From positions 4,306 through 68,305 of the forward strand of contig JBCLLY010000005.1 in the NCBI GenBank assembly GCA_039738415.1: 64,000 bases of DNA. The letters are read 5' to 3'. Below the pieces are notes generated by a model. That model saw nothing but the letters and a program-made list of their open reading frames with translations, had not been told where the DNA came from and searched no databases. A program made the translations under genes and the position numbers. Below, piece by piece: positions 598-36,035 of the stretch. Position 1 is the first letter of the stretch; the number at the start of each line of letters is the position of its first letter. The DNA comes from Candidatus Levyibacteriota bacterium (GTDB lineage: Bacteria > Patescibacteriota > Microgenomatia > Levybacterales > GWA1-39-11).

Positions 598-642
598 ATT
601 AATTTAGTTGCAAAAAATCCCCCCCCGACATGCAAGGGGGGC

Positions 643-4644: not shown

Positions 4645-5111
4645 AAGCTTAGTCCATGTCTTCTTCCTGCTTCATCTGGATTAACGCCCTGTGGAGTGCC
4701 GATGCTGACGTCAAGAAGGCACGCCTCGTCAGCGCTTATTTCGAGTCTATTAAGCAGCGCCTGTTCTGCAATTTGACGATAGGTTTCAAACGGAGTCATC
4801 ATTATAGTAATAATGAATTGGCTTGATTCCCTTATGTACACAAGGTCGTATCCCTTATCTCGCGTCATGAGTGAATCGCCGGTTGTATTTGTCTCAACGG
4901 GAGATATGTATGGATTTTTAATAGGGATTCCTGATATTTCTATTTTCTCTCCCTCTGGGATATCAAATCGAATAGGCGACTTCGTAGGAAGGGGTATTTC
5001 TTCAATTATTTCTTTAGGACTTGATGAGCGCATTATTATAAGAATAACAAAAACAATTGCAGTAAAAATGACAAGTAAAAATAATATTCCTAAATAAATT
5101 GTTTTTTTCAT
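4635..5111 (-). CDS. hypothetical membrane-anchored protein
   Basis: 158-aa ORF with a single N-terminal TM helix (IYLGILFLLVIFTAIVFVILII). Its start overlaps the upstream gene's stop by 4 nt (5108-5111). Confidence 0.5.
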   Translation of the reverse strand: MKKTIYLGILFLLVIFTAIVFVILIIMRSSSPKEIIEEIPLPTKSPIRFDIPEGEKIEISGIPIKNPYISPVETNTTGDSLMTRDKGYDLVYIRESSQFIITIMMTPFETYRQIAEQALLNRLEISADEACLLDVSIGTPQGVNPDEAGRRHGLSFCK

Positions 5112-6205
5112 ATGTTTATATTACACGACGCCAAATCTCTTTGCACAAAAGGCCATGTAGACCATTCTGTCCACGCATTTCCGTTAGATGATATGGAAAC
5201 CATTTTTTGGACATTTGCCTCAACGGGTTTTAATGCTACCCTGCAGGTAGATCTATTCTGCTCGTTTACCAAGTATTGGCAGCGTTCAAGGGGGGGATTA
5301 ATGGAGGAATCATAAGCATATGGCGCTTCACTACATGTATGCCAGACAAGATTTATTTGATAAAGTCCAATAGAGTAATCATCGTTATTTTTATTGTCGT
5401 TGTTACATCCTGTTCCGCTTGTTAATTTCTCTCCAAAGGGATTACTCGTGCTTTCACGCTGGCAAATCATTGAAGCAATGATGGCTTTTTGCTCATCCCC
5501 ACCAAGGTATGGTAAAAGCTTTTGTACAGAGCAAGGGCCTGTTCCTTCGAACTGCTGCGTGCAAGTATTTGATGAAGCGCCGCCGGTTGTGCTGTCAGCA
5601 ACTGATGACCGTCCATAGACAGTGTTTGCTATTTCAATCTTATCTATAGTTGGTTTAACTACCAGTGAGAAAGTATAGCTGGTAGTTCCTGCAGTAAGCG
5701 GCCATTCGATAGTCCCTCCTGTTTGAACATATGGATCTGTGGCTGAGACAAATTCTACATTTGCGGGAAGCTTGTCGGTAATAACTATTTTATCAATTGG
5801 TGTTCCTCCCTGGGGCTGTATGTACGTAACAGAAATAGAGTATGTTATTGTTTGGCCGAATTCAACTTGAGCATCACCTGTTTTTGTAACGGTTAGACCA
5901 GGGATTGGCGGTAGGGATGGTACGCTGCCGCCTGGAAGAGGAATTGGTGTAGGTTCATCTGCGCCAGGACTCAAACCAGCCCCAGTACCACCATCCATAA
6001 AAAAGAAAAAAATAATTATTATGAAAAAAAATGTTCCCCCAAGAATTATTGGAAGCTTCGAGGCGACTTGTCTGATTACAAAGCGCTTTAGTTTCTTTTC
6101 TAAGAAATCTGCCGGAGCACTTCTTCTCCGATCCTTCCCTCGTTGGTTATAATTGCGCTGCTGAGGCGGAGTTTGGCTTGGTTGATTTTGTTCTCTCTCA
6201 TCCAT
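5108..6205 (-). CDS. VirB1-like lytic transglycosylase with DUF11-like repeat domain
   Basis: N-terminal TM helix. A DUF11-type beta domain (LTVTKTGDAQVEFGQTITYSISV...ITDKLPANVEFVSAT). A C-terminal SLT/lysozyme-like motif pair (MICQRES...YSIGLYQIN). Overlaps the virB4-like gene by 8 nt. Confidence 0.6.
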   Translation of the reverse strand: MDEREQNQPSQTPPQQRNYNQRGKDRRRSAPADFLEKKLKRFVIRQVASKLPIILGGTFFFIIIIFFFFMDGGTGAGLSPGADEPTPIPLPGGSVPSLPPIPGLTVTKTGDAQVEFGQTITYSISVTYIQPQGGTPIDKIVITDKLPANVEFVSATDPYVQTGGTIEWPLTAGTTSYTFSLVVKPTIDKIEIANTVYGRSSVADSTTGGASSNTCTQQFEGTGPCSVQKLLPYLGGDEQKAIIASMICQRESTSNPFGEKLTSGTGCNNDNKNNDDYSIGLYQINLVWHTCSEAPYAYDSSINPPLERCQYLVNEQNRSTCRVALKPVEANVQKMVSISSNGNAWTEWSTWPFVQRDLASCNINI

Positions 6206-8465
6206 TGTTTAGTGTTGGTGTGTTGTTTTGGGTAGGCTGAGTGTGGGTTGGGTTAGGCGCTTGTGCCCGAGAAGAACCCTGAGCTATTTGTGGGCTTTGT
6301 GTAGTCGTTGTGTATTGTTTAAAGTGGTTTTCTGATTGGTGACTTTGTGTTTGAAAGTATCCCTGTTTCGGTTCTATGTTAACCTCTGTTCCTTGAGCGA
6401 CAGCTGAAGCATTGGTTACAGGAGGAGTTTGTTGAACTGGTTCCTGTGGTTGTTCAAATGTCTGACCATTTGTTTTAGGGACAAGCGTTTGTGCATTCTG
6501 ATTTTGCACAAATGTTTCACCGGGTTCCGGAGGTACTGCTTCCGGCTCTATAGGTGGGGTTGGTGGTGGAGGATTGCTCGCGTCTTCTACTTGTTGATCT
6601 AAAATATCCTGAGGTTTTGAGGTTATTAAATCATATTCAAATTGAGAGGAAATAAATTGTGCGGTTACATGATTTTGACCCGCAAACAAAAGTCCTTCCC
6701 CGACTTGCGCAGTTAGCAGATACTGCTTTTCTCCACCTGACAGGTTAAGTGTCTTTGCAAGAGTTTCTACCTCAGAGGCTCCCTGCTTTAAAAGAATTTG
6801 GATAGATGAGTTAGAAAGAATTGATTTTCCATAATCACTTGCCAAAAAGTCTTCAATATCTTGAGTAAGAGTTGTAACTCCCAGATAATATTTTCGCGCG
6901 CGCTTGGCAATTCCCTGCAAAAATGCAGCAGAGTCAGGGTAGCGCATCAGATACCACGCCTCATCAACCACCAGAATTCTTTTCTTAAGCTTTGTTCTAA
7001 CTCTGCTCCAAACGAAGTCGAGAATTACGTGCATAGCAATTGGGCGCAGCACATCTTCAAGCTGTTTAAGTGAAAATACTGTCATTTTGTTTTGCACGTC
7101 ATAGTTGGTTTGTTGATTAAAAAGACCGGAAAATCCTCCTTTTACATACTTTTCAAGTCTAAATGCAAGCTCCTTTGCCTCAGGCTCTTCCATGTTTAGA
7201 AGTGTTTTGTATAAATCTTCAAGAATAGGGGGCTCGTTTTTATAGGTTGCGGGATTTGGAGTAATGCCTTTTTGTTTATAGGCAAGAACAAGAGACCTAT
7301 CCATAATCGCCTCTTGTGTTGGAGTCATTTCCCCAAGCATTGTTTTTAAAAGTCCATGAACGGATAAAATCTTAAGACTTAATTGATTTTCAGACATATC
7401 GTCGGGTAGGAGTGCGAATGGGTTAATTTTTACCTCCGAACTCTTGGAAAAAGTAATATATTCTCCACCCAGAGACTGACAAAGCGCTCTGTATTCATCC
7501 TCAGGATCTATAATTATTATTTCAGTGCCAAATATATACTGGCGCATTAACTCAAGTTTTACCAGAAAAGATTTTCCCGAACCGCTCTTTCCAAAAACAA
7601 CCTCATTTGCATTTTCCAGCGAGAACCTATCAACAATAACTAAAGAGTTGTTCAACGTATTTATTCCGTACAAAATTCCATTTGGGTGAGAAATTTCATA
7701 GCTTGTGAATGGAAAAGTTGAGGCAACGGATGTAGTATCCATGTTGCGAGTTATCATAAGCTTGTCGTCTCCTTTTGGAAGAGTAGTTTTAAACCCGTCT
7801 TCCATTTGCAGCGTTGCCGGTTTTACAACCAAAAGATCTGAAGCAAGAAGAGAAGTGAGCTCTTTTGTTTTTAGGTTTAACTCCTCCAGGTTGTCTGCGG
7901 AAATTGTTATGTATAGTCCGAATTGGAAGAACCGCTCAAGTCCCCGGGCAAGTTCTTCGCGGAGCGAAATAGCGTCTTCAAGTGATGCTTGAACTTTAGG
8001 GTCGGCAACAATACCATTTTGAGCATCAGACTGTAAAGTTGCCTCCATTTCTGCAATTTTACGCCTCAAATTAGACAAAACGTCTTTACTCTCAACAGGG
8101 TAAAGAAACATAGAAATATTCATCGTTTCCTTGTAGTCAATAAGTATAGATAGCCAATTAGGAGATACTTGTCGGGGGTAATCGACTACAAAAAATGTTC
8201 TGTAATATTTGTCTCCAACCCTTATGTGGCGGAAATCGACCTCAACTGATGAGGGTGCGATAATATCAACAATTGACACAGACCCTTTTCTCAACTCTTC
8301 CAGATGTTGATCGGGGTGAGGTTTTTTTGCATTCTTTTTCTCGTTTTTGCCTTTTGGGGGTTGGGGAGTTTGTGCTTGCACAGGAGAACCAACTACTGGT
8401 GTACCAGGAGCGAGTGCCGGTGCCTGCTGTGTATTTTGTTGTTTTTTATTTCCTAGTCCAAACAT
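6198..8465 (-). CDS. virB4: VirB4/TrbE-family type IV secretion ATPase with low-complexity N- and C-terminal extensions
   Basis: Walker A FGKSGSGKSF, Walker B ILVVDEAWYLM, and DPEDEY. Size and domain order are typical of VirB4. About 60 aa at the N-terminus and about 140 aa at the C-terminus are P/Q/T-rich tails. Confidence 0.85.
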   Translation of the reverse strand: MFGLGNKKQQNTQQAPALAPGTPVVGSPVQAQTPQPPKGKNEKKNAKKPHPDQHLEELRKGSVSIVDIIAPSSVEVDFRHIRVGDKYYRTFFVVDYPRQVSPNWLSILIDYKETMNISMFLYPVESKDVLSNLRRKIAEMEATLQSDAQNGIVADPKVQASLEDAISLREELARGLERFFQFGLYITISADNLEELNLKTKELTSLLASDLLVVKPATLQMEDGFKTTLPKGDDKLMITRNMDTTSVASTFPFTSYEISHPNGILYGINTLNNSLVIVDRFSLENANEVVFGKSGSGKSFLVKLELMRQYIFGTEIIIIDPEDEYRALCQSLGGEYITFSKSSEVKINPFALLPDDMSENQLSLKILSVHGLLKTMLGEMTPTQEAIMDRSLVLAYKQKGITPNPATYKNEPPILEDLYKTLLNMEEPEAKELAFRLEKYVKGGFSGLFNQQTNYDVQNKMTVFSLKQLEDVLRPIAMHVILDFVWSRVRTKLKKRILVVDEAWYLMRYPDSAAFLQGIAKRARKYYLGVTTLTQDIEDFLASDYGKSILSNSSIQILLKQGASEVETLAKTLNLSGGEKQYLLTAQVGEGLLFAGQNHVTAQFISSQFEYDLITSKPQDILDQQVEDASNPPPPTPPIEPEAVPPEPGETFVQNQNAQTLVPKTNGQTFEQPQEPVQQTPPVTNASAVAQGTEVNIEPKQGYFQTQSHQSENHFKQYTTTTQSPQIAQGSSRAQAPNPTHTQPTQNNTPTLNNG

Positions 8466-9202: not shown

Positions 9203-9289
9203 TTAAATTGATAAATTGTTAAACTGCCAAAGCGTTAAATTGTTTTTCAGAGTTTAGCAATTTGACAATTCAGCAGTTTGGCAATTACG
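9203..9289. repeat. phased 8-nt repeat arrays in inverted arrangement (intergenic)
   Basis: Units at 9203-9242 (ttaaattg, ataaattg, ttaaactg, ccaaagcg, ttaaattg) lie 5 nt from the ATG at 9197. Opposite-orientation units at 9258-9289 (caatttga, caattcag, cagtttgg, caattacg) overlap the stop at 9285. Confidence 0.8.
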
Positions 9290-10367
9290 CGCTTTGCGTA
9301 TTTCCAAATAATTCTTGTCTTAGTTTTTCTCTTTGATCTGTGGAAATAATTTCTAAAGGCTGGAATATTTCGTTATTCATCTCTATATCAATTGGACTAA
9401 ATTCGTGAATATGCCTAGTGTCCTCAAGCAATATTTGATAATTTCCAGCAGAAAGAGTAGTTGCTGATGAGAATTGACCAAGAGCGTTTGTTTTAAAAGC
9501 TCTAACAGGGTTACCGCCAGAGTCAATTACTTCAACTATTATATTTGGCAAAACTTTTCCGCGCGCGTCTTTTACAATCCCCAAAACTACATTTGGGGTG
9601 TCGGGAATTTGTGGAAAACCACTGGCTAGTTGATTTTCCGGCGCAACAGAAACACCGGGCATTGACGGTTCTTGAATTTGAGGTTTAGGCGCTGGAGCTA
9701 GTACGGGTACAATGTTTTGTGTTAGAACGGTCGCGCTTTGTGGGATAGGCAAAGGCGCTTGTTCTACAGGTTCGGGTGGGGGAGTTACCTGAATGGGCTC
9801 CTGCGGCAAGTCTACAGGAAGTCTTACATAAGTGCCTTGTGGAGTTTGAGGTGTATCAATTGCCACCATACCCGTAACGGGAATGTTTGACTCGCTAAAT
9901 AGTCCATTTATACCCTTAAGCTGTTCGCGCTCATTCTCATCCACTTTATATGGGACATTTTTTCTGACGAGCTGATTTAGTAGAAGCTCGCGTCGGTTGT
10001 CCTTTTGTGCTACTTGGTTTATGGGGGTAGCTTTGTGTATTGTTTGTGGAGTAAAGTAATCGAAAAGTAATGCTTCGGCACCTTTTTTATGGAACATAAA
10101 GCGGTTTTCGGCAGGCAATGCTTTTAAAAAATTCATGAGCATTACGTCCATTGGTCTTCCCTCAATCGGTAAGAAAGCAAGTCCCGCGCCAATTGAACCA
10201 ATGAGTATAATAGCGGGCCACTTCAAGAGAAATGATATGGGCATTATGAAAAAAACTCCACATAAAGCCCCAGCCGCCAGGATATAAAGGAACTGTTTTA
10301 CTGTGACCGAGCCAATGAGCCTAAATTTAAATCCGGTAACATCTTGCGGTATAGGATGATTTTCCAT
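9285..10367 (-). CDS. PrgI/VirB3-like membrane protein fused to a Pro-rich linker and CarboxypepD_reg-like beta domain
   Basis: The N-terminus (IPQDVTGFKFRLIGSVTVKQFLYILAAGAL plus two TM helices) resembles the PrgI family of Gram-positive T4SS. The C-terminus (GIVKDARGKVLPNIIVEVIDSGGNPVRAFKTNALGQFSS) resembles a carboxypeptidase-regulatory-like fold. Confidence 0.6.
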   Translation of the reverse strand: MENHPIPQDVTGFKFRLIGSVTVKQFLYILAAGALCGVFFIMPISFLLKWPAIILIGSIGAGLAFLPIEGRPMDVMLMNFLKALPAENRFMFHKKGAEALLFDYFTPQTIHKATPINQVAQKDNRRELLLNQLVRKNVPYKVDENEREQLKGINGLFSESNIPVTGMVAIDTPQTPQGTYVRLPVDLPQEPIQVTPPPEPVEQAPLPIPQSATVLTQNIVPVLAPAPKPQIQEPSMPGVSVAPENQLASGFPQIPDTPNVVLGIVKDARGKVLPNIIVEVIDSGGNPVRAFKTNALGQFSSATTLSAGNYQILLEDTRHIHEFSPIDIEMNNEIFQPLEIISTDQREKLRQELFGNTQSA

Positions 10368-10431: not shown

Positions 10432-10806
10432 TCATTCTTTTAATCTTTCATTTGTGAATTTTATAAGTTGATTTAATTCTTTTGGCAAAACACCCAAAGA
10501 CTCGTTGAGCATCTTGTATTCACTCTCTGAAATTAAATCACGAGCTTTAGCTTTTTCTGGCCAATCTATCGATTCAAGCAATGAGCCGAAGCTTATCTTG
10601 TAAAACCTTACCTTATCCTTTTTTGAATATCTACCAAACCCTTCGGCGATATTTGCTGAAATGGAATCAATTGCAGTAACAAATTGTGAACCTACTGTCT
10701 TTTTTTCAAACCATTTCCATTTACAAACTATATTCCAAACACTGTTTGATAATCTAAACGCTTCTTTATAGCTACTAATGTTATCTAACGTTAAATAAGT
10801 TCTCAT
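10432..10806 (-). CDS. four-helix-bundle protein (23S rRNA intervening-sequence protein family)
   Basis: The motif SISANIAEGFGRYSKKDKVRFYKISFGSLLE is characteristic of this family. Length is 124 aa. Confidence 0.75.
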   Translation of the reverse strand: MRTYLTLDNISSYKEAFRLSNSVWNIVCKWKWFEKKTVGSQFVTAIDSISANIAEGFGRYSKKDKVRFYKISFGSLLESIDWPEKAKARDLISESEYKMLNESLGVLPKELNQLIKFTNERLKE

Positions 10807-11087: not shown

Positions 11088-12518
11088 TTATGTAGTCGGC
11101 GTAGCCGGTGGCGTACCAGGGTTAGTGGTTGGTGGGGCTAGTGTGTGAGGTCGAAACGGATTTGTTCTTGGTGCGGTTGTTACCTGGGGGGGATTATGGG
11201 GTGCGATTGGTTTCGAAAGTGCATCATTGAGTTTTTGTGCGCTGGTTATTGTCACATGTCCATTCTTGATTTCGTATTCTACTCCCATAAGGCCCATTAT
11301 ACGACTAAATATGGGATCAAACCTGTCTCCTAGCCATTTATATTGGCCGTTTGGTCCCTTTGCTGCCTGCCAAAGTGCATCTGCTTCTTTTTCAAAACGC
11401 TTAATATCAAAAGTATTAGGAATTTGATTCAATAAATCTTGGTTATTAAGCTGTCTTATTGACGTGTTTTCGTGGAAGCCTCCATACATTTGAATAAAGG
11501 GAACGCCTTGTACCATAGATGCTAAAAACCGCCGAGGATTTGAGGTTACTTCTGCGCGGTTAATAAATCCCATCCGTCCTTTTTTGGCCGCATCATATCC
11601 CCTGGCAGAATCAATCATCCAGCCAACTTCAAGATCTTCCGCAATTTTTGCGTTAGGATTGTATCCTCCAATTGCCGCGTAGATAGATGAGCGGAAAGCT
11701 GCATTTCTTCCTACAAGACTAGGACTGCGAGGGTTTCTTTCGCTTGGTGTACCTTCTGCATCTTTTTGAATCATCCTGTCAAGAAGATACCAAAGTCTTT
11801 GACCGGCTCTTAAATTAGGTTTCGCCAGTGCTTCCGGTGGAAGAGTCCATTTTCCTGCAACAGCGTCAAGTTTTGGTTTGTTATCAAACTCAGTCACCAA
11901 ATCTGAAATATATTTATCGTTGATTCCATCCAAATCAGCATCAAAACTTACCAGAATAAGATCTCCATTACGTCTTGTTCTCTTTGAATTTCTTAATAAG
12001 GCTAAATCATTGGCGTACTTTCGTGCATTTCCAACTCCTGCAACATCGCCTTCTTTCCATGTCTTGTCAACATATTGAACGTTTAATTCCGGATGTAGGT
12101 TTTTAAATCTCTGAACTTCTGCCTCCGTAGAATCTTTTGCAACGTTTTCGGGGTAGTTGTCAACGATAATAAATTCATATGTGGATGGGTCAAGCGGGTT
12201 TCCATTTTGATCTTTTTGAGCAAGGAAGTGGTTGAGAGTTTTAAAGATGTTGCCTCCCTCACCATAGGCGGGTACCGTAACAACAAGCTTGCAGTTCCCC
12301 TTCATTTCCGGAAGATTTTCATTATATATTTCAAGTTCTTTTCGATACGAATCAGGGAGCTTCTCCAAATACTCCTTCGTTTCCTGGCTCTCATCCAGCT
12401 CAGCGTCTGGATTTTCAAGCAGGCGTTTTGATCTTCGCTTTTTATAACCTTCATCATTCACCCCTCTATCAACGAGGCCTATGTTACCCCCGGAATAATC
12501 ACCGCCATACCCATACAT
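11088..12518 (-). CDS. family-2-like glycosyltransferase with Pro/Thr-rich C-terminal tail
   Basis: GT-A-like features: LVVTVPAYGEGGNIFKTLNHF, FIIVDNYPEN and VSFDADLDG (DxD). GGAGGT lies 11 nt upstream of ATG 12518. Confidence 0.6.
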   Translation of the reverse strand: MYGYGGDYSGGNIGLVDRGVNDEGYKKRRSKRLLENPDAELDESQETKEYLEKLPDSYRKELEIYNENLPEMKGNCKLVVTVPAYGEGGNIFKTLNHFLAQKDQNGNPLDPSTYEFIIVDNYPENVAKDSTEAEVQRFKNLHPELNVQYVDKTWKEGDVAGVGNARKYANDLALLRNSKRTRRNGDLILVSFDADLDGINDKYISDLVTEFDNKPKLDAVAGKWTLPPEALAKPNLRAGQRLWYLLDRMIQKDAEGTPSERNPRSPSLVGRNAAFRSSIYAAIGGYNPNAKIAEDLEVGWMIDSARGYDAAKKGRMGFINRAEVTSNPRRFLASMVQGVPFIQMYGGFHENTSIRQLNNQDLLNQIPNTFDIKRFEKEADALWQAAKGPNGQYKWLGDRFDPIFSRIMGLMGVEYEIKNGHVTITSAQKLNDALSKPIAPHNPPQVTTAPRTNPFRPHTLAPPTTNPGTPPATPTT

Positions 12519-12716
12519 TGATAGCAGTACCTCCAGTGGGAAGCGGGGGGTGATAACCCACGGGATTATTGGAATTGGAATTTCATAGTCTGAGCTAGTA
12601 TCAACAGGAGGGACGAGCTCGGTAACAGGTATTTCTGAAGTTATAATAATAGGTTCTGCGATTTTTATTTCAGGCCCACCAAATACTGTAGTGGGGGGGG
12701 GCCCTGGACGGGTACA
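12519..12716 (-). other. open -1 frame bridging the 1236-aa ORF and the glycosyltransferase ORF, entered at a poly-C(9) tract
   Basis: The glycosyltransferase reading frame has no stop from 12716 down to ATG 12518. It overlaps the last 17 codons of the 1236-aa ORF. The C9 run on the coding strand is at 12693-12701. Confidence 0.7.
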
Positions 12717-15700
12717 TCAACCATTGTCGGAGTAGGACTCGCACCATTTGCTGTTGCAAATGCCTGTAGCACCTTCCCATCACCTCTATCAACAAGCCTT
12801 CCGGTTTCGATAAAGCCCATTTTTCCATTTCGACCGAGATTAAATACATCTTGATGTCCATAAACTTCTGACGCGAGACTTCCTTCAGGAAGGGAAGCAA
12901 GTTTTTCTTGATTTAGGACGATTCGTGAGAATTCTCCAACGGTCATACTGTTGGGGTTAGAGGGGTCAACTTTATTTGTAAAATCAGTTGGGTCGAGTCG
13001 TATTTTTCCATCAAGTTTTCCATCAGAAATATCCGATACCCAAATCGGATTTTTCTGATCATCGGGCAGGGTGAAAGCAAATCCTGCTTGACCGTCGCGT
13101 ATGACCTGCTGAATGTCTATCGGGTTTGGTTCAATTCCTGATTGATAACCAAGTTTCATATCAGACATATCCCACTCAACGCCTTTTTGTCCATTTCCCG
13201 CGTCAAACACGGAGTTGTAGGCGCGAAGTTCGTTATGATCTGAATATGGAGTATCGTATGCGTACCATTCGCGTCCAGAAATAGGCGTTGTTTCCTTTGA
13301 CCATAATCCCTCAGGTCCAAACACTTCTGTGGGTGTAGAAATTGTCTCTCCGGGTATAGTGTCTGCGTCTTGGGTGAAAGTAGCAATTGATGATTCAAAG
13401 GTCATTTTTCCGCTTTCATCAAATTGTGCATTGTCGACGAGCACGTGTTCAGGATGACTTGTTACCACCAAATCAAACTTTGAAGGATCGGAAGCATCTG
13501 GTACCCAGTTAGTTCCCTCGGGGACTAGCGTAGGGCGTCCATTTAACATCTCAGTTGTTTGTGGAGCAGATGGACCAATAATTATGTCCTCCTTTTTTAT
13601 CGGGTCAAGATTTTTTATTTCAAATCCCTCCATATCAAATTCGTCCCTGATGTCGGTCGGAATGTCTCCCTCAACTCTCAAACTGCCCGTATCGGTAATT
13701 TTCGCGTTTGGTAAAAGCTTTTCACTTCCATCAGGGAGTTTTACGGATACGTTATTTTCAGAACCGGGGATAATTGTCATATCTCCGACATCCACAGGTT
13801 TTCTGTCTTTGAGTAGCTGTGCTATATTGGCACGCGCTTCATTTGTTTTACCAAAAACCTTATCAGCGTAAGGTATATTTTCAAGACCCGTAACGTAAGC
13901 ATTTTTACCTGTAGCTTCAATAATCCCACGTACAGCAGCTGCGGCTCCTAGACCACTTGCAAGTCCTATGGCGCCTCCAATACCCGCTGAAACGAGAGAA
14001 GAGCGGACTCTATACATATTAAAAGCTCTGTCTTGATCCCTGACGTCTTGATTAAATTGAACATTCCATTCTCCCTGAAATTCAGTAAGCCGGGCGTCTA
14101 TCATGTCGTTGTCCATTCCAGAATCTCTTAGTTTTACTCTCGCTTCAGCAATTGACCTGACAAGAGACATTCTGTTTTGCTCAACTGCTTCTCTGCTTTC
14201 ATAAGTAATTAGCCCCTTTTGATTGTTAAATCCATAATCAAGTCGTGCTCTTATCTCCGCTGCTCGCCTTAAAATAGCTTGTTGATTTGTGTCTGTGTTT
14301 GTTGGGTTATCAGGTGAGAGGCTGAGCTCCATAAGCTCTCTCATACCTCGCGAATCACCAAAGACATTTTCTCGCTCCTGACCTCCATTAATAAGAGTAT
14401 TGAACGAAACGTTTTCGTATTGATAATTATCAAGTTGTCGTCTTCTCCTATCGCTTTCAAGACTTGAAGCGTTATATTCTCTATCTGCTTGATGCGCGGC
14501 TCTGTCCACCTTTAAATCGTGCGCACGTCTCAGGCCGGCAAGGGCGGCTCCAAGTACACTTCCTGCTACGGGCGCTGCAAGAAGCGCTCTTCCAGACATG
14601 CCTGCAGCACTCATTCCACCATAAATTCCGATCGAGACAGCAGCACCGACAACTGCAGGATTTGTGAACCAGCGGCGTTTATTATTTCGTTGAGACCAGG
14701 CTATGGCCCTGTCTGCAAGTGTCCATTGAGTTGCAGAATCTGCAGCCCAGTTAGCGTTTGCAAGTTTTATCGTGGTAAGCTCTTTTAGACGCTCCATAGA
14801 GTAGTTGTGAGCTTCTCTATCTTGCCTAAGTTGATTACCAACCTCGAGTAGATCTGACGCGAAAAGTTCAGCTATCGTGCCAAATCTAGTTGCATCACGT
14901 CCAAATAGAGCTGCAACTTGCGCGTCGTCCTGATGGTTTTGTACAAATTCTCTCAGCGCTTGCTGAATCTGGTCATTATTAGTTATCTGCCCGTCTACAA
15001 TGGGTGCGATTATTTCATCAAAAACGAAATCCTTGAGATTTCCATCGAGAGTTACATCGAGATTTACATCGATTTCAACCACTCGATTTCCCGCAATATT
15101 TTCTCCGGTTTTAAGTTCTTGTACTTTTGATCTTTCAGACGTGCTTTGCTGATCGCGCGCAGTATTTATATTTGTTGCCGCTTGCGAAAAAAGATCAAGC
15201 TCGAGATAAGTGTTATTTGCTGCTATCATCTCTCTTAGGGCCTCAGATATATATCGTTGTCTGTAAAATTCCTCAAGCACTCTCAGGCGGGTTTTTCGGG
15301 CCCAATTTAAAGGATTAAGCATATTTCCCCTGCGTTGTTCGGCTCTCAGGTGTTCTTCGGCGCGCTCCCTGGCTCTTTGATGAAGATCCAATGTCCTGTT
15401 GACAATCATTGCCTCTCGTTGTACGTCCTCGATCGAAGTGGAAGTAGGGGTTGTTTTAACTTCGGCAGCTTCAGCTTTTGGTTCTTTTGTTGCACTATCT
15501 GTCTTAACTTCTTCCGAGGTTATTTCAATTTCTGAAGGAGTAGCAGCTATATCATCGGGCGTTATCTCAATTGCATCGCCTTCTTTAGGAGGCGAAGGGG
15601 GCGGAGATTCTTCCTCTCCCAAATATTCTGCTATTTTGTGCGCAGGTATTTCTCCGGCTCCATCCGGAAACTCTTCCGGTTGTTTTACTTGTGATCCGTC

Positions 15701-16870: not shown

Positions 16871-17167
16871 TTAGAACGTGGGTCTGGTGATTTGACCTAC
16901 GCCTGTAACTGTTGCGATAAGATTTAAAATTGCAAAAGAAAAGAATATAAGCAATAGTCCGATTATCGCGTAGGTTAGGGTCTTTTTTGCATTATCTACT
17001 TCCTGAGGGTCGCCCTTGCTGGTGACAAATTTAAATCCTGCGTAAATTATAAGAGCCAGTGCTACAACTCCTGCAAAAATGAGCGCCCAGTTAATAAGAT
17101 TTTTTATAACTATCGGAATACACCTAAGTGTGGCGACTTCGCCTTCAAGACATGATGCCCATTCCAT
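16871..17167 (-). CDS. T4SS pilin-like (TrbC/VirB2-type) small membrane protein
   Basis: Two TM helices flank the shared module YAGFKFVTSKGDPQEVDNAKKTLTYAIIGLLLIFFSF. The same module occurs in three neighbouring ORFs. Confidence 0.65.
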   Translation of the reverse strand: MEWASCLEGEVATLRCIPIVIKNLINWALIFAGVVALALIIYAGFKFVTSKGDPQEVDNAKKTLTYAIIGLLLIFFSFAILNLIATVTGVGQITRPTF

Positions 17168-17182: not shown

Positions 17183-17602
17183 TTAAAAGTTAGGAAGTTT
17201 AGGAATAGTAAGAGTTGTTAAGCTTAGTCCGAATATTCCCAGTATAAAATTCAGTATGAAGAATGATAAAAAGACGATAATTAGACCGATTACAGCCGCA
17301 ATTATTTGATTTCTGGCACCTTCTACTTTTGTAGTGTCACCGCTTGAGGTAATCCACTTCATTCCTCCAATGACTAACCAAATAAGCGCAATTACAATTG
17401 CAATTATAAACATGATTATGATTATTGTTCCAATAATACCCCCAAAATCAGCGGTTTGAATATTGCAAAATTCTTTATAGGGCCCATCTGGGCAAAGATC
17501 TAATGGTGTTCCTGTGCCTGAACCTGGTGTGGGGGTTGCAAAAGCAAGCTTAGGAGAAATAAAATAAAGTATCGGTGAGAGAAGTGCAATTAGTCGTTTC
17601 AT
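17183..17602 (-). CDS. T4SS pilin-like small membrane protein
   Basis: Signal peptide (…KLAFA/TP) followed by the module IGGMKWITSSGDTTKVEGARNQIIAAVIGLIIVFLSF. Confidence 0.65.
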   Translation of the reverse strand: MKRLIALLSPILYFISPKLAFATPTPGSGTGTPLDLCPDGPYKEFCNIQTADFGGIIGTIIIIMFIIAIVIALIWLVIGGMKWITSSGDTTKVEGARNQIIAAVIGLIIVFLSFFILNFILGIFGLSLTTLTIPKLPNF

Positions 17603-17652: not shown

Positions 17653-17973
17653 TTAAACAAACTTGACGTTGAATATTGATCCAAAGAACGTCATTATTCC
17701 AAAAGAGAGTAGTGCGACTAGAAGACCGATAATTGCATAAACTATTTGCGTGCGCGCAGCCTCTATTTTTTGAGGGTCTCCGCTCGAGCGTATCCAGTTG
17801 GTGCCTGCCCAGACGATATATAGTAGGGAGGCAATAATAACTACTATTAGAAAAATCTGAAGCCCTACGGCAATAGCACTGGATAGTGTTCCTGCGCCTC
17901 CTGTCGGAATTCCAGGAGGCGCCTTAATTACTCCGTATCCTGGAATTTTGAGTTGTGCTAAATTTTCTGTCAT
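17653..17973 (-). CDS. T4SS pilin-like small membrane protein
   Basis: Contains the module WAGTNWIRSSGDPQKIEAARTQIVYAIIGLLVALLSF between two TM helices. Confidence 0.65.
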   Translation of the reverse strand: MTENLAQLKIPGYGVIKAPPGIPTGGAGTLSSAIAVGLQIFLIVVIIASLLYIVWAGTNWIRSSGDPQKIEAARTQIVYAIIGLLVALLSFGIMTFFGSIFNVKFV

Positions 17974-17979: not shown

Positions 17980-19746
17980 TTAAAATCCTCCGGGTGGAAT
18001 TTCACCTGCAGACCCTGTACCATCATCAACCCTATCCACCCCAGTATTTGTTTTTGCGGGTACGTCAAATTCCGGAATTCTTAAAATATCTCCAGCAATA
18101 ACCTGAAGTATGACGAATGAGAAGATAATGAATAAAAGTCCGATTATGGCAGCTGTTAATATTTCGCGGGCGTGTTTAATCCTCTCAGGATCCCCGCGGG
18201 AAATCATATAATAGTAGCCCCCGTAGATAATAAGACCGAGTGCTGCAATGAACGCAATAGATAAGACATATGAAAAAATGTTGTTGATGAAATCAAGAGG
18301 TTTAAGTCCTATCTTTCCTATCGCAGTATCAAGGGTTTTGCAGTCAAGGGGATCGTCAGGTAGTCTTTTGCCTTCTCCTCCGATAATACAGGGTAGGCGT
18401 GTACTTCTATATCCAAGCGCCTCTAATAAATCAGGTATTTTGCCAATATTCTCGCCATTTGGATCATAAATTCCGTTACTGCAGTAACTTTTTGATAAAT
18501 CTGATGTAACACTGCAAGCCATACGAAAATAGACATAACCTCCTTGGCAAATAGGCCCCTCATCAGCACCAACATCGCTATAAAATTCTCTCACCTGCTC
18601 CTTAACCTCAATAATATAAGGCTGATCAGACTCTTGAAGGGTAATATTTGTTGGCAAAGTTACCGTTCCCATATGAGCGTTTTTGTCTCTACTAAGAGTG
18701 ACGCACGCTTCACCATTACTTGGAATAAATTTAACATAATCTTTAGGATCCCACCGACCTGCTGCAATACCTTTGCCCTTTATGACAATCTGATAATTAT
18801 TTCTAAGTTTCTCCTGTTCTTTCGCCTTGTTACTGTTGAGATCGCTTTGACCGTGTCCTCTCAAATTAACAGGTAATTGATTAACAGGTAATTGACCCTG
18901 AAGCTTTCTGAAGAAGCTCATTATTATTTTCCCCTGTTCATTATATATTGTAGAAACGTCTACTTTTGCCCTAGCTTCAATTTTTATAACTAATTTATCA
19001 CCAGGGATTACTGGTATAAGCCCGTTTGGTCCCTTACCCGGGAGTATTTTTCCACCTTTTTCTTTACTCACGGTAATAACAGGGGCACCGTAGTTTATAT
19101 AAAATCCTGCGATATCGACTAATGAGTAAAGAGGATTATCCTTTCCAATCTTTTCGTAAAGCGTTAGTACGTATATTTTTCCCGGGTGGAAATAGTCGCG
19201 TCCGTTTAGGCACCCTACTTTGCCCTTACCTTTTTCACTTGGTGCGTGGTCTTTCCAATAGTTTCCGTTTTGCCCCTTCCAGTGTTCATGACTACCCTCA
19301 GTTCCCACCGCCCTTAATTTAGACGAACTATCCGCGCATACTTCTATGCTTCCCCCCACGAGTGTAAAGCGCATTATTGTCGGCTCGTCAGCCTGTTTAT
19401 TATCGAGACCATTCCTAGCGACACTTCGTGCAGTAGGGTCCCCGTCAAGTATTCCCTTTCGGATATCCTTGTCATTTATACACAAATCACGCTCTAAACA
19501 CACATAAATTTCATTTTCCCCTATGCTATTCATGGTTTCCGGTGAAAATGTTACCTTTACAGTAGTTTTATAATCATCTATAAATTGCGGTTCGGGGACA
19601 GTAGTAAATGTTTGAGCAAAGGAAGTACCTGCAAATAAGAAAAAGAAAAAGAAAAGAAAAGAGGTAATTGTTACAATTGTTTTTAACATATCTCTATCAT
19701 ACACAGAAAAGAACTCAAAAATCAAAGAAGTTAAATTGTTATACAT
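17980..19746 (-). CDS. large secreted domain fused to a C-terminal pilin-like module
   Basis: Signal or TM segment at the N-terminus, an approximately 470-aa Cys-containing extracellular region, then YGGYYYMISRGDPERIKHAREILTAAIIGLLFIIFSF, which is the same module as the three downstream pilin-like ORFs. Confidence 0.6.
   Translation of the reverse strand: MYNNLTSLIFEFFSVYDRDMLKTIVTITSFLFFFFFLFAGTSFAQTFTTVPEPQFIDDYKTTVKVTFSPETMNSIGENEIYVCLERDLCINDKDIRKGILDGDPTARSVARNGLDNKQADEPTIMRFTLVGGSIEVCADSSSKLRAVGTEGSHEHWKGQNGNYWKDHAPSEKGKGKVGCLNGRDYFHPGKIYVLTLYEKIGKDNPLYSLVDIAGFYINYGAPVITVSKEKGGKILPGKGPNGLIPVIPGDKLVIKIEARAKVDVSTIYNEQGKIIMSFFRKLQGQLPVNQLPVNLRGHGQSDLNSNKAKEQEKLRNNYQIVIKGKGIAAGRWDPKDYVKFIPSNGEACVTLSRDKNAHMGTVTLPTNITLQESDQPYIIEVKEQVREFYSDVGADEGPICQGGYVYFRMACSVTSDLSKSYCSNGIYDPNGENIGKIPDLLEALGYRSTRLPCIIGGEGKRLPDDPLDCKTLDTAIGKIGLKPLDFINNIFSYVLSIAFIAALGLIIYGGYYYMISRGDPERIKHAREILTAAIIGLLFIIFSFVILQVIAGDILRIPEFDVPAKTNTGVDRVDDGTGSAGEIPPGGF
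18866..18895. repeat. perfect 15-nt tandem duplication inside the CDS
   Basis: ttaacaggtaattga occurs twice in tandem, encoding QLPVNQLPVN in the 588-aa protein. Confidence 0.9.
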
Positions 19747-21427: not shown

Positions 21428-24400
21428 ATGGTCCTAATATATAGTTGGGGCATTATGGAACGATTGACACATACACCCGAGCGGGCTTATCCTGTAGAAA
21501 GGACCATTATGGAAGAAGTTAACAAGGAGCTAGAAAAGCAAGACTCTATTGCCTCAGAAGGGGGCAGTAGGGATGATGATAAGAAAAAGATTTCAAAAAA
21601 AAGAGCAATCACCCCGGAGGATAAAAAAAGGATTAAAGAGCAGTATGAAGAGCAGAACCGTCGTAAACGCGCTCAAGGCGAGGATATAACGGAAAAAGAA
21701 CTTGAAGAGCAAAGAGAGTTTATAGAAAAAGGAATACCAATTATATCAGGAGGATCCGAAGACGGTAATTTTTCAAATTTCGACCCTACGCGTTTTGAAA
21801 GCAATAGCTCTCTTGAAGAATTAGCAAGAAAGGTACAGGCTGCAGGGCTACAGAGTAAAGTTGACAGTTCATTACTTGAAAACATACGAGCAGAGCTAAA
21901 TAGGCGCGTCCAATTAGGGCTTGTTTCAGACAATGAAAGCAGGGATTTTACAGCCTATTTAAATGAGTTTGTAAATAAGTCAAATGAAGAGGAGATTCGA
22001 AGGAAGGATGCTCCATCGGGGAGAACGGAGGAGAATTTAAGCGACACAGAGAGGGATGAGTCACAGGAAATGGACCAACTTAATCTTGGGATGGAATGGG
22101 AGCTGGCAAACTCGATAGGCGATAGTGATACTAGTCTTATTATCGATCAATTTAGAGCATCAGCAAGGAAATTAGGTGAAATATTTTCCGATAAAGAATC
22201 TAAGAAAAGCGCTGAAAAGGAGATTTTGAATATATTAAGTAGCAAAAGTGATCTTGGGGCTATGCGGGAAAATCTCAAATCTTTTTTAAGAAAAGCCGCT
22301 GAACAGAGGAAAAGGAATATATCTGAGGGTAAAATCGAAGTGAGCGCACGCGAGATAACCTCTATTCAGGACCTTTCCAAATTTATTATGGCAAGACAAG
22401 AAAGCGCCCTTTATGCCACAGGTAATAAGTATGAGCTTATAGATACTAGGGGCAACTTCAAACCCGAAAATTTTCTTATATGGGTAAGGGAGCAAATAAT
22501 TCAACTCCATGACGACAATAGAACCGCAGAAATGTCTCCACTATCTGCTGTTGCTATAGAAACAGATATCCGCACAATGACAATTTATTCTATGACCAGA
22601 TTTAAGGGGCAGTATTTTAGGGATCAGAGTACTAACGAAATACTTAGAGATCTGGCTGACAATATTGTGAATATGTGTTACTACTTCGGATTTTTTAGGA
22701 ATATGGATCTTGCGTATAGGCAGACCATGAACAGAGACGATGAGCTTCCTGAAACTATAGCAAAAATTCATGCGGGAAGTGATGTTACTCACGATGACAA
22801 CTGGGCGTCATTTCTTTCGATGCCTGATAAATACGGACATACAGTAGAAGAAGGAAGCGACTTAACTGAAACAAAAACAGGTGACGGCATGCTTGTTGCA
22901 AACGACATTTATTACAACATGTCAGATATTGAGGAGTTAAAAGCTATTTTAGGCGAAGAAAGCGGTTTTTTCTCCAAAGAAGGTTTTAAAAAAGCCATGT
23001 ATATTTTACAGGATAAATTACAGTGGCAGAATCTGGACGATTTTGCCGAGCTATATGATGTAAAAAAAGATTATTTTTATATTACAGATAGTATAACCGG
23101 AGAGAAAAAAGCAATTTTTGATAGCGATGGGAGAATTATAGAAAAAAACTTTTTTGAATTAATGAACATATTCAATAAAGCCTCAGCAGACTTTGTCCCT
23201 TTTGTAAGGGAGATGGTAAGACTCGGGGTTGCGGAGAAAACAGGGCTCGACTACGGGTTTTTGCCTACTGAAAGAGTTAATGCAGAAAAAAGTAGGTTTG
23301 AGGAAATAGTTAGCGAGATAAAAGAAGAGGCTGTCAAGAAAAGATGGAATGTCGATGATAAGCTCGCGCGTAAAAAGGCTGAAGAGAAAATTAAGAGGGA
23401 TAGAAAGGCGTCTAGAATTAATCTTACATTTGCTGAATATTCCTCATATGTACAACAAAGACCGCTTCTCGTTGCTTCTAGAAACGACACTAACCGCCGT
23501 GGATACGATGCCATGTCGAAGATGGATATTAATTATGTAATTCGACAATCATCTGAGGGTACGGCAGGATCAATTGGAAATGAAGAGTTTTACCTAAATC
23601 CTATTTTTAAAAATATCGGAGTTGATTTTTTAACAGGGTTAAAAACTAATAGCGGTAGGGCTCCTGTTGAGATATTTAGGGACATAAGAGAGGTGAGAAA
23701 CAACAAGGAACTAAGTCTAACGGAAAAACAAGAGAGGAAAAATAAGTTGCTAGCTGAATTAAGATTTAAGGAAGGTGCAGCGCTTGATTTTACAGCGAAT
23801 CATATCAAAAGGGCGTTTCAGATATTCCACGCTCTTACGGGGGGGGAAGAAATGAATCTGGACAAGATAGTCCAATATAAGCCGATGACTCAAGGGGGAA
23901 TTTTTTTCGATACAGCAGAATTTGAAAAACAAATAAAGGAAGAGCATATAAAGCCTCTGCGTTATGCCTTCGCATCAAACGACGCACTAAATTATGGTGC
24001 TATCATAAGAAGCTTTCAATATCTCGACAAAGATGGCATGCCTGTTTATAAAGACGCAACACTTGTAGAGCATATGTTTGGCGATATAGTGCTTGATGAG
24101 ATAAGACAAAATGCCAGGAGGGGAAGGCTTAAAGGCAAGCGGGTAAATGAGGATGGAAAAGTTGAAGAAAGAAGTCTTTCTTTTGAAGAGTATGTTAATT
24201 CTCGTGAAGGAAGAACTAGAATTGTAAAAAATGTATCCAGGGCGAAAATTGCTGCTGAGTTAAAAAAACACAGAAAGTACGGAGCTCCTGTAGAGCGATG
24301 GAATGCAGGAATGGTCGAGAAATTTATATCAGCACTTGAGTCAATTCACGCTCTTGAGCGCGATCCGAATAACCCCGATAAGATAATCGAAAATCCAAAC

Positions 24401-24566: not shown

Positions 24567-27068
24567 TTAAGAATTGTTTCCTCGTTCTAATCTTTCCCGT
24601 GCTTTTCTTTGCAATTCAACAATTTCAGATTGACTTAGAAGTTTTCCTTGCTTTTTCTCTTCCTCCTTAATCTTTTCCACCTCTTGATTTATTTGCTCTC
24701 TGGTTGGACCAGTATTTGCAGTAGTCGCTTCACGGCGGAAACCTTCAGGGACAATAAATCGAGAGTTTTCCGAGGATGTTCCACTAGGAGTGTGGGGAAC
24801 TGTTGAGACAGGTGGAGCAATAGGTGGAGCAATAGGGCTTCCTCCTCCAGGGGGGGTTACTCCCGTTCTCCTTTGTTTATCTTTTGCATACCTTTGTTCT
24901 GCCTCCACCCCCACCTCTGTCTGTTGTTCTTCTGTCCTATTCTTTTCATAACCTTTTTCCGTTACTATTGCATGCCTATGTTCTGCAAGACCCTGCACCT
25001 CTGTCTTTTCTCCTTCTGTCATATTCTCTTCATCATAACCCTTTTCTGTTCTTATGGTTTCCTTATGTCTATTGATTGACTTCTCTCTTGCTTTTTCTTT
25101 CAACTTTGCGCTTCTCCCAAATCCAAAAGGCGATAGCATCGAGCCGATTTTACCTGCTGCGCCACCTGCTGCTTTTGCGCCACCCTGGACCTTACCGTAG
25201 TGCTCTCTAGAAAGTCCTCCGCCAGTTAGAGCTCCTGTCAAAAATCCAAGATTTTGACCCACCCACCTGCTTCCGGCGCGGGGATTGCCCATCACATCCT
25301 TACCAAACATTTCACCAAAAGTACTCTTTACTGGCTTGCTGATAAAACCGACACCCATACCCAAAGGTCTTGCCGCTGCTGAAGCGATTCCTACGTCCGG
25401 AGCGCCTATTAGGCTTTTTGCAAGATTAGCTGCTTCAGGCATAATAAGTATTATTCCCAAGGCAATTAGTGATGCTACCGAATTTACGCTTCCTGGATCG
25501 CCTATGAGAGGCGGAACGAAGTTATCTGAATTTGGAGAGAGACTATTTTGAATACTTGCCCCTATCATAAAAAGGACCATAACTATTGGAAATGCAGCAA
25601 GATTTGCAACAAGACTTTTTATCCAGGGAGTAAACCCGGCTTTCTCATTTGAAAAAAGTCCTCCCAAAATCCAAAAAGGCGCAAAGATTACAGCAACTAT
25701 TATCATAATATACGCCTTTATGAGTATAAACCAAGTTCTGAATAGCGCGGATAAAACAGCTACGAGAATTACTAGATAGGCAATTATTGAAGCAACCATT
25801 GCCAGAATAGAGCCGCTTTTCAGAAGACCGATTCCAGCTCCTATAAGAGTTCCGAGTCCAGCTCCTATAGTGGCTCCCGCAGCGGCTCCAGCGGGACCGC
25901 CTAACATACCAACAAGCCCCCCCAGTAGTCCTCCTATTCCGCTTCCCGTCTGTCCACCCAACATAGCGCCAGCTACAGTCGTTACCATTTTTCCAACATT
26001 AGATCCAATATTACCTTTGAAAAGCGAGCTCATAATTTCAGCAGCACTTTCTGCTGGGGGTGAAACAATAGAGTGGAGTCCCCCGACAGGATTAAGGGCG
26101 CCCGTATTTTTTACTACGCCGTCAAGCGGATTAACAAAAGGATCAATAATATCGGTAACGTTTATATTACCAAGACTGCCATCTGTAGGGAGTCCGATTT
26201 CACTCGGACTTATACCGGGATTACCAAAACTGTTGAACATCCCCCCAGCAGCATTTATAGGGTTTGTATCAATAACTGTCATAGGTACTAGCCCTGGAGC
26301 ATTAAATACATTTATAGAAAGATATATGGAAACATACATCATGTCTATAAGAAATCCTGCTATAGCATAGGAAAAGGTAATAAGAACCAGGGTGATAGTT
26401 ATCTTGGGTAATTTATTCTGGATAGTCATAACTGCTTTTGTATCGTTAATACGGAACATTACTCCAAGACCGATAAGAATAAATACGATAATAAATGCCA
26501 GATAAGTAATATTACGGAATGCAGTCCAAATAGGCAGTACGCTTCTTAGTCCATCAAATCCTACTCCTTGGGCATAAGTGTTTTGTGTAATGCCAAAATT
26601 ATTTGCCAAGTATCTTCCATAATTACCCGACGATATCGGAATATCATATGTCGAACCGATAAGATTACCCATGAGTGATACCAGACCACCATTTACTTCC
26701 GCATAGCCCAACTTTTTCGTAACAGGGTCTATGCCCAGGCACCTTCCGTCTATGCTTATCGGGTTATATCCTGACATAAAGCACGATGCTGTTCCTAGAA
26801 GTTCTATAAATACACTTTGGGTATAGGTGGATAAGTTATGCGGAACATCCGGATTTGTGTTCATCGGAAGAGTTTGCGGATTTATGTTCTGATTTTGATT
26901 TAGCGTGTTTTGTGGTGTAGCCAAGTCCTCAACATTTTTAATAAGAATTGGTGACTGTGTATTTTCTGTTTGGGCGCTTTGGGTCTGGGCAAACGCAGAC
27001 CCCGAGTTTGGCAGAAGATATAATAGTGTACCTATTATAATAGTGAGAATTAAAAGAATTTTTTTCAT
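24567..27068 (-). CDS. polytopic membrane protein, putative VirB6/TrbL-like T4SS channel component
   Basis: Signal peptide (…GSAFAQT), at least 6 predicted TM segments and long Gly-rich stretches (GGQTGSGIGGLLGGLVGMLGGPAGAAAGATIGAGLG). The C-terminal tail is charged with an internal repeat (EKGYDEENMTEGEKTEVQ / EKGYEKNRTEEQQTEVG). The VirB6 call rests on architecture and context only. Confidence 0.45.
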   Translation of the reverse strand: MKKILLILTIIIGTLLYLLPNSGSAFAQTQSAQTENTQSPILIKNVEDLATPQNTLNQNQNINPQTLPMNTNPDVPHNLSTYTQSVFIELLGTASCFMSGYNPISIDGRCLGIDPVTKKLGYAEVNGGLVSLMGNLIGSTYDIPISSGNYGRYLANNFGITQNTYAQGVGFDGLRSVLPIWTAFRNITYLAFIIVFILIGLGVMFRINDTKAVMTIQNKLPKITITLVLITFSYAIAGFLIDMMYVSIYLSINVFNAPGLVPMTVIDTNPINAAGGMFNSFGNPGISPSEIGLPTDGSLGNINVTDIIDPFVNPLDGVVKNTGALNPVGGLHSIVSPPAESAAEIMSSLFKGNIGSNVGKMVTTVAGAMLGGQTGSGIGGLLGGLVGMLGGPAGAAAGATIGAGLGTLIGAGIGLLKSGSILAMVASIIAYLVILVAVLSALFRTWFILIKAYIMIIVAVIFAPFWILGGLFSNEKAGFTPWIKSLVANLAAFPIVMVLFMIGASIQNSLSPNSDNFVPPLIGDPGSVNSVASLIALGIILIMPEAANLAKSLIGAPDVGIASAAARPLGMGVGFISKPVKSTFGEMFGKDVMGNPRAGSRWVGQNLGFLTGALTGGGLSREHYGKVQGGAKAAGGAAGKIGSMLSPFGFGRSAKLKEKAREKSINRHKETIRTEKGYDEENMTEGEKTEVQGLAEHRHAIVTEKGYEKNRTEEQQTEVGVEAEQRYAKDKQRRTGVTPPGGGSPIAPPIAPPVSTVPHTPSGTSSENSRFIVPEGFRREATTANTGPTREQINQEVEKIKEEEKKQGKLLSQSEIVELQRKARERLERGNNS

Positions 27069-32434: not shown

Positions 32435-32525
32435 TAGTTAATTAAGGTAATTACGGTGTAAATCCGTAGCTGTGCCGCAACTGTAATCCGCCGTCGAGGT
32501 GGGAAGTCAGAAAACTAATTAACTA
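32435..32525 (+). promoter_or_regulatory. cobalamin riboswitch aptamer (compact form)
   Basis: A 10-bp P1 stem pairs tagttaatta (32435-32444) with taattaacta (32516-32525). The core GGTGtaAAtCCgtagCtGtgCCGCaACtGTAA and a B12-box-like GAAGTCAGAAAAC match the conserved cobalamin riboswitch elements. Confidence 0.65.
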
Positions 32526-35987: not shown

Positions 35988-36035
35988 CACTTCGCCCCTA
36001 TATATTGTTCGGGCTTTGCGTGGCACAGCCACAAA

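Follow-up and report, generated by a model that had tools for sequence, protein, structure and literature searches.

A 64,000-nucleotide (nt) stretch of the genome of a Candidatus Levyibacteriota bacterium (GenBank assembly GCA_039738415.1, contig JBCLLY010000005.1, positions 4,306 to 68,305; hereafter the window) carries on its minus strand two consecutive open reading frames (ORFs) of 1236 and 476 amino acids (aa), the second in the -1 frame relative to the first and separated from it by a spacer of 146 nt (12519-12664). Shortly before its stop codon, the first ORF contains a run of nine C residues (C9) at which the two frames could be joined. The locus thus raises the question of whether one is looking at two genes, at two products linked by a recoding event, or at a single gene whose frame is broken in the C tract, and, in the last case, whether the break lies in the DNA or in the assembly. 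Comparison with homologous sequences indicates that the two ORFs are the halves of one ancestral gene, joined at the C tract. We read the break as a commonplace homopolymer frameshift and not as a device evolved for recoding. We give an even chance to its being a genuine slipped-strand variant, that is, a hypermutable tract caught at its OFF length.

Across the tract, the minus strand reads ...GTC CAG GGC CCC CCC CCA CTA CAG TAT TTG GTG GGC CTG AAA TAA. Sequence and coordinates were rechecked and agree with the initial annotation of this DNA: the tract occupies positions 12693-12701 and its last C lies 26 nt 5' of the first base of the stop codon (12667-12665). The last eight residues of the 1236-aa product, LQYLVGLK (12668-12691), constitute an out-of-frame tail. 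Read in the frame of the downstream ORF, positions 12716 to 12519 (66 codons) contain no stop, the nearest one on the 5' side being at 12719-12717; this open stretch shares 52 nt with the 3' end of the upstream ORF. Retranslation of this segment up to the ATG at 12518 gave CTRPGPPPTTVFGGPEIKIAEPIIITSEIPVTELVPPVDTSSDYEIPIPIIPWVITPRFPLEVLLS-MYGYGG, exactly the product that had been announced. Adding one C in silico (C10) generates a single uninterrupted ORF of 1762 aa; removing two (C7) generates one of 1761 aa. The predicted tryptic peptides are VLQAFATANGASPTPTMVDVPVQGPPPTTVFGGPEIK for the fusion junction and VLQAFATANGASPTPTMVDVPVQGPPPLQYLVGLK for the truncated C-terminus.

The segment between the tract and the ATG at 12518 behaves as coding sequence. 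Its 58 codons in the -1 frame (12519-12692) include no ATG, GTG or TTG and, as listed in Table 1, they encode the invariant motif of the protein family, 42 codons 3' of the frame break. Nine invariant columns of the homologue alignment (I1270, I1271, P1272, P1277, R1278, P1280, L1281, E1282 and L1284) fall inside the spacer. The motif string, IIPWVITPRFPLE, is identical in the window and in its closest full-length homologue (P0002); other homologues have IIPIPFAPRHPLE or close variants of it. Since there is no start codon in the 58-codon stretch, only ribosomes that arrive from the upstream ORF can translate the motif. The position of the frame break can be narrowed as well: QGPPP, in frame 0 before the tract, and TTVFGG, in the -1 frame after it, align contiguously with PGGPTTIFE in the orthologous locus L004 and with GAPKTIFE in homologue P0004, and this contiguity across QGPPP|TTVFG places the break inside the C tract. 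A start-less open 5' extension overlapping the 3' end of a same-strand upstream ORF is found for only one of the 51 ORFs in the window, the 476-aa ORF. The combination of this unique extension with an invariant family motif encoded within it is far beyond chance.

Homologues and orthologues speak to the same point. A search with the hypothetical fusion protein returned, besides the window's own 1236-aa product, five homologues (P0002 to P0006), each of them one long polypeptide. The alignment of P0002 (2089 aa, 40% identity) extends over 96% of the fused query, while P0003-P0006 (1805-2370 aa) cover both of its halves. A contig scan with one genome per species yielded 16 loci from metagenome-assembled genomes (MAGs) of Patescibacteria, Levyibacteriota and Daviesbacteria, the relatives found in this manner being only 26-43% identical. 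In five of these loci (L001, L002, L003, L004 and L010) a single ORF of 1624-2442 aa runs across the junction, motif included; the motif, in the form IIPxPFxPRxPLE, was present in L001-L004, L009, L010 and L014. A gene for a DUF5663 protein lies directly upstream in six out of six loci checked, with a pilin ORF further up in both loci scanned for one. Because this order matches that of the window, the loci can be regarded as positional orthologues. The initial annotation had proposed to compare fused with split orthologous loci and to look for conservation of the spacer frame; the orthologues are fused and the spacer frame aligns with all of them. Its suggestion that a tenth C would give one gene of about 1760 aa is likewise borne out, by the 1762-aa ORF obtained in silico and by the homologues and at least five positional orthologues that are single ORFs. 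Finally, a profile of the junction region was run against 1.84 billion protein representatives and matched 2452 proteins at E <= 1e-3. In 118 of the 148 top matches, one stretch of the hidden Markov model runs from the motif into the C-terminal glycosyltransferase (GT) module, and at least 400 aa precede the module on the same polypeptide in 129 of the 145 top matches that have it. The single-gene architecture of about 1760 aa is ancestral, and it is almost certainly the form that functions.

Apparent exceptions were followed up. Two short matches, P0139 (439 aa) and P0056 (467 aa), begin at the position where the window's GT ORF begins and were considered as stand-alone GT genes; they are the only two short GT-only matches whose contigs were read. 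Both start 18-23 nt from a contig end and were rejected as such genes; in one locus (L017), the called Met is preceded by 18 nt that encode PLENIL, with which the motif ends. A split orthologue in L009 (3796-3895) was rejected as a biological split since the interruption is a scaffolding gap: 100 N, bordered by a stretch of about 60 nt that is duplicated. The split in L014 involves a different frame change, located about 175 aa upstream of the motif, without a homopolymer and unrelated to the C9 site. This last case (L014:5250-5550, on a 1.1-Mb contig of Candidatus Daviesbacteria STC_54) is an observation in its own right: the break lies inside a conserved REWY...NELRAYN region with only a T6 nearby, and possible explanations are an independent frameshift and an error in the assembly of this contig, which has 10.6x coverage.

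The C9 is the longest G/C homopolymer of the window. Its occurrence was assessed by shuffling synonymous codons in the 50 main ORFs, whereby a G/C run of at least 9 arose in 13% of the shuffles. By the same procedure, G/C runs of at least 7 in coding regions are about 4-fold enriched (9 observed vs 2.4 expected, P ~0.001), the excess being built from CCC-CCC and GGG-GGG codon pairs, which this genome prefers; A/T runs of at least 8 are depleted in ORFs (12 vs 19.6 expected). The existence of the tract can be explained without special selection, as Gly-Pro-Pro-Pro written in the genome's preferred codons. The remaining in-frame G/C tracts of at least 7 (examples in Table 1) would all qualify as candidate phase-variable tracts by Campylobacter criteria. 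A second homopolymer frameshift was considered at a C8 (619-626) and rejected: the run belongs to an intergenic C8...G6 hairpin. The element (619-641, plus strand) consists of C8, 9 nt and G6 (CCCCCCCC GACATGCAA GGGGGG) and forms a G/C-clamp hairpin, terminator-like and without a clear T-run, between a membrane-protein gene (289-597) and the dnaA-like ORF (N-terminus MDDIWKLVL, ~725).

How, then, should the break be read? Were the lineage to have fixed the split as two separate genes, the GT module would be translated alone from the ATG at 12518 with the help of the GGAGG that precedes it. The presence of a Shine-Dalgarno (SD)-like GGAGGT 10 nt before this ATG fits such an arrangement, and the swapping of C-terminal modules within the family makes a free-standing module conceivable. 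The initial annotation had gone further and inferred from this SD that separate and fused products could coexist. The position of GGAGGT is real, but SD and ATG arise from the codons for conserved PLE-V and MYGYG residues, respectively, which are internal in the orthologues; the Met of the MYGYG stretch is found within EFMYGYGL in L003, FPMYGG in L001 and ILMLYGYG in P0139/L017. As both elements are by-products of conserved coding, they provide no evidence for an independent start, and the proposed coexistence is not supported. Furthermore, a fixed split would leave the invariant motif untranslatable in a start-less stretch, yet the motif is perfectly preserved, and both of the short GT-only matches with contigs read are contig-edge fragments. 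We consider two fixed genes to be very improbable. Little better can be said of the idea, also contained in the initial annotation, that C9 is real and the fusion is made conditionally, by -1 ribosomal frameshifting or by RNA polymerase slippage adding a C, both products being evolved outputs. C_CCC_CCC and C_CCC_CCA are formal X_XXY_YYZ heptamers in the correct zero-frame register, as had been stated, and the -1 frame, free of stops, specifies conserved sequence. Both heptamers are frameshift-prone in E. coli, in which C_CCC_CCC ranks among the efficient -1 motifs and C_CC.C_CC.A, without stimulators, gives more than 0.10% frameshifting vs a background of about 0.055% (PMC4066793). However, the tract is lineage-specific by alignment: in the linkers of the orthologues, all of them contiguous single ORFs, no G/C run reaches a length of 6, and the maximum over the whole of nine orthologous genes is 7. 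No stimulatory element was found either, whether a hairpin or pseudoknot 5-9 nt downstream or an SD-like sequence about 10 nt upstream. Predicted folding of 12600-12730 (z = +0.40) and of the 100 nt downstream (z = -0.06) does not depart from shuffled controls, and the only local hairpin near the tract has 7 bp and takes up the last three C's. Expected yields without stimulators are well below 1%, amounting to a leak and not a programme. As for transcriptional slippage, it would call for about nine consecutive A or T residues or more, whereas the residue here is C (G on the template strand). The homopolymer transcriptional insertions seen in E. coli and Buchnera lie 100% in A/T runs, with none in G/C runs (PMC5574713). 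The claim of a conditional fusion by slippage is thus not supported, and we rate the evolution of both products as regulated outputs as improbable. The locus does resemble programmed -1 frameshifting in dnaX or IS3/IS911 orfAB in that a heptamer stands in register and the protein would be extended through an open -1 frame; unlike in those systems, whose products and signals are conserved across relatives, there is no stimulator, the site is not conserved and the orthologues are single ORFs. Similarly, with transcriptional-slippage rescue (poly-A tracts in Buchnera and Blochmannia, Thermus dnaX, Shigella mxiE) it shares a run of 9 at the break of an intact conserved gene, but known cases use A or T runs. 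Altogether, the lineage specificity of the tract, the lack of RNA structure and the origin of SD and ATG from conserved codons make both programmed frameshifting as an evolved device and the two-gene arrangement unlikely.

The choice between a miscounted tract and a true indel is less one-sided. If the break were an assembly or sequencing artefact, the organism would have C10 and an intact 1762-aa gene, the consensus having been under-called by one base. The break does fall exactly in the window's longest G/C homopolymer, the most error-prone site for any platform, and one added base restores an ORF that aligns end to end with the orthologues. Several further observations weigh against a genuine variant. 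There is no decay downstream of the tract: the downstream frame, the motif and the GT module are all intact, as a miscount of an intact C10 gene would give. The tract is explicable without selection (P = 0.13, synonymous shuffles). No close relatives turned up in the collections searched: the products of the two ORFs (P0001 and P0007) are singleton clusters, an exact-protein look-up of P0001 gave no other assembly of the locus, and metagenome scans confirmed nothing with the 457-aa junction protein and gave 0 matches with a degenerate DNA pattern for IPWVITPRFPLE. Antonov et al. (PMC3711429), who surveyed 1106 genomes, expected most homologue-validated singleton frameshifts to be sequencing errors. 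The present case shares with the singleton fs-genes defined there by GeneTack a single homopolymer frame transition that is confirmed by full-length homologues and unshared by orthologues; it falls into this null category (sequencing error or recent indel), from which the sequence offers no demonstrable difference. On the other hand, all of the 20 remaining long homopolymers that lie in ORFs (A/T of at least 8 in 12 cases, G/C of at least 7 in 8) are in frame and no other ORF pair among the 51 ORFs shows a frameshift signature, so the assembly is not generally prone to homopolymer errors. Most public Patescibacteria MAGs are short-read assemblies, and a consensus miscount at a run of 9-10 nt is uncommon in such assemblies when depth is adequate. 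In addition, G/C tracts of at least 7 serve as an operational criterion for phase-variable loci, and those of at least 8 in Campylobacter jejuni NCTC 11168 all vary (PMC6321876); the C9 lies inside the reconstructed reading frame and exceeds both lengths. In our judgement a genuine variant has about half the probability and a miscount is a substantial minority possibility; like the estimates given above for recoding and for two genes, these reflect priors and not data from the locus. We infer at this strength that the DNA itself carries C9 and that the tract was not miscounted; that the change is reversible, or of any adaptive value, is a further inference.

If the slipped-strand reading is correct, the events could be as follows. 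The Pro-rich linker, written in this lineage with CCC codons, would have given rise to a C homopolymer, in which a DNA-level slipped-strand indel produced C9 and broke the frame; this OFF length would be the dominant genotype in the sampled population. The resulting truncated protein of 1236 aa would keep the predicted membrane-anchored body and lose the motif and the GT module, and cells regaining C10 would make the full 1762-aa protein. Unprogrammed -1 slippage on C_CCC_CCC or C_CCC_CCA might also supply a trickle of full-length protein; such a sub-percent leak is plausible, given the efficiency of these heptamers in E. coli, but would be incidental. These features are reminiscent of the simple-sequence contingency loci of Campylobacter jejuni, Neisseria, Haemophilus and Helicobacter, with their intragenic G/C tracts of at least 7, truncating frameshifts and an ON length set by the longest of the three reading frames, which here is that of C10. 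The likeness extends to the type of gene, part of a surface or host-interaction apparatus, and to the switched part, glycosyltransferase-like as in many Campylobacter loci (PMC6321876). The differences are that the tract lies about 70% into the gene, so that OFF trims a C-terminal module instead of silencing the protein, and that contingency loci are defined by variation in tract length, whereas the C9 is known from a single sequence.

Alignment places the gene product in a large Patescibacteria family whose members, giant proteins of about 1300-2900 aa, are encoded immediately downstream of pilin and DUF5663 genes. The family is apparently undescribed: neither Pfam nor NCBIfam gave a match for the body of the giant protein, and DUF5663 was found in no paper of the literature collection searched. 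From the N-terminus, its members comprise a conserved N region, three hydrophobic segments, whose membrane topology is predicted, a variable region, a Pro-rich linker, the IIPxPFxPRxPLE motif and one or more swappable enzymatic modules. The modules following the motif are GT2-like in the window and in L001, GT2-like plus PP2C in P0002, a Ser/Thr kinase in L002, GT9 in L010 and GT9 plus PP2C in P0006. The initial annotation had named the window's module GT2. A distant GT-A/GT2-like fold is plausible, whereas the specific label finds weak support in this copy, whose score against the Pfam GT2 model (20.4 bits, E = 5e-4) is below the cut-off of 23.3; the module of orthologue L001 passes it with 25.5 bits. 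A profile match to a structure in the Protein Data Bank (6yv7, E = 0.004) is consistent with such a fold, and the DAD motif is conserved in four of the five homologues that have the GT module. An AlphaFold model of spacer plus module, made with a 6-row alignment, has a mean predicted local distance difference test (pLDDT) score of 48.9, with values of 66-90 only for residues 110-260, where a beta-alpha-beta pattern runs up to VSFDADLDG; among the Foldseek matches of this low-confidence model, GT2 enzymes rank first, with low TM-scores (template modelling scores). The layout may be likened to that of CdiA with its VENN motif and of other polymorphic toxin systems, where a large conserved body and a short invariant motif likewise precede differing C-terminal modules. 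There is no sequence relationship, however, none of the family's modules is recognisable as a toxin, no immunity gene was found, and the locus resembles a type IV secretion system (T4SS) rather than a type V or type VI system (T5SS/T6SS).

The giant gene and the DUF5663 gene lie within a cluster whose other members are given in Table 1. As judged from its predicted products, this is a Patescibacteria T4SS-like locus related to MPF-FATA systems, with a VirB4-like ATPase, a PrgI/VirB3-like protein, VirB2-like pilins and a cell-wall hydrolase, and it is found near dnaA, close to which (~725) the window begins. Patescibacteria T4SS-like loci have been described as located near dnaA, with VirB6 homologues scarce in Microgenomatia (PMC12102498), and the arrangement in the window matches that description. 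The giant family occupies the position expected for PrgH/VirB6, in the very class where VirB6 homologues are scarce.

Table 1. Features of the C tract, the reconstructed gene and the surrounding cluster in the window (window coordinates).
Feature	Position	Strand	Remarks
C9 homopolymer (GGC CCC CCC CCA), site of the frame break	12693..12701	-	G9 on the plus strand; in-frame lengths C10, C7, C13
Reconstructed single gene, C10, 1762 aa	11088..16375	-	giant membrane protein of the Patescibacteria T4SS-like locus (predicted), with C-terminal GT-A/GT2-like module
N-terminal part as called, 1236 aa	12665..16375	-	conserved N region, three hydrophobic segments, variable region
Hydrophobic hairpin, aa 573-616, two predicted membrane helices	14528..14659	-	Kyte-Doolittle scan; conserved in alignment
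Third hydrophobic segment, aa 795-818 (predicted)	13922..13993	-	Kyte-Doolittle scan; conserved GG..G...G columns
"Spacer" read as 58 codons of coding sequence (TTVFGG...PLEVLLS)	12519..12692	-	-1 frame; aligns with all orthologues
Invariant family motif IIPWVITPRFPLE (consensus IIPIPFAPRHPLE)	12531..12569	-	boundary of conserved body and swappable C-terminal enzymatic modules
SD-like GGAGGT	12529..12534	-	10 nt before ATG 12518; within Leu-Glu-Val codons CTG GAG GTA of the PLE motif
C-terminal module as called, 476 aa	11088..12518	-	distant GT-A/GT2-like domain (plausible); DAD (DxD-like) motif; Pro/Thr-rich tail
Further G/C runs of at least 7 in ORFs (examples)	1512-1518, 5290-5296, 11186-11192, 23839-23846, 24850-24856, 25917-25923, 59372-59378, 60448-60454		
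SLT_3 hydrolase	5108-6205		
TraG P-loop / CagE_TrbE_VirB ATPase (VirB4/TraG-type)	6198-8465		
PrgI	9285-10367		
23S rRNA intervening-sequence protein gene	10432-10806	-	PF05635, E = 2e-21; within the T4SS-like cluster, flanked by the giant gene and the PrgI-like gene
T4SS_pilin-domain ORFs, four	16871-17167, 17183-17602, 17653-17973, 17980-19746		

Some other features of the window deserve mention. The last of the four pilin-domain ORFs (17980-19746, minus strand) encodes a 588-aa protein, far longer than its three small adjacent paralogues, in which the sole recognisable domain is a C-terminal T4SS_pilin (aa 486-550). Outside the cluster, an AdoCbl-II (cobalamin) riboswitch match (32435-32525, plus strand) scores 36.6 bits vs an Rfam gathering score of 36.5 and lies upstream of an ORF at 32642-33196; such a riboswitch, if real, would be unexpected in a metabolically reduced Patescibacteria genome. 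The window also contains a full-length transfer-messenger RNA (35596-35990, plus strand; 117.8 bits) and a tRNA-Ile with a TAT anticodon (41175-41247, minus strand).

For annotation, the consequence is that the two ORFs need to be combined into a single entry marked as a frameshifted gene, and that the 146-nt spacer is coding sequence. The frame break itself is an everyday homopolymer event and its wider interest is conditional. More noteworthy than the frameshift is the gene family, giant proteins fixed beside DUF5663 and pilin genes, with a boundary motif and interchangeable enzymatic domains. The T4SS-like apparatus of these bacteria is thought to mediate their epibiotic lifestyle. That a real, reversible switch attaches the GT-like module and the PRxPLE motif to a giant T4SS-associated membrane protein in this Microgenomatia-like bacterium is, in our view, doubtful. 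The literature collection searched held no paper combining phase variation, homopolymeric tracts and the Candidate Phyla Radiation. Reads with a mixture of C9 and C10 would be evidence that a T4SS-associated protein of an ultrasmall episymbiont undergoes phase variation of the simple sequence repeat type. Should C9 be real, the product is a protein of 1236 aa ending in LQYLVGLK, with neither the invariant motif nor the enzymatic module. A true switch would then act by C-terminal trimming and not by gene silencing, and the family, with more than 2400 clusters and a body without a Pfam model, would be a modular carrier of swappable cargo domains (GT2-like, GT9, PP2C and Ser/Thr kinase).

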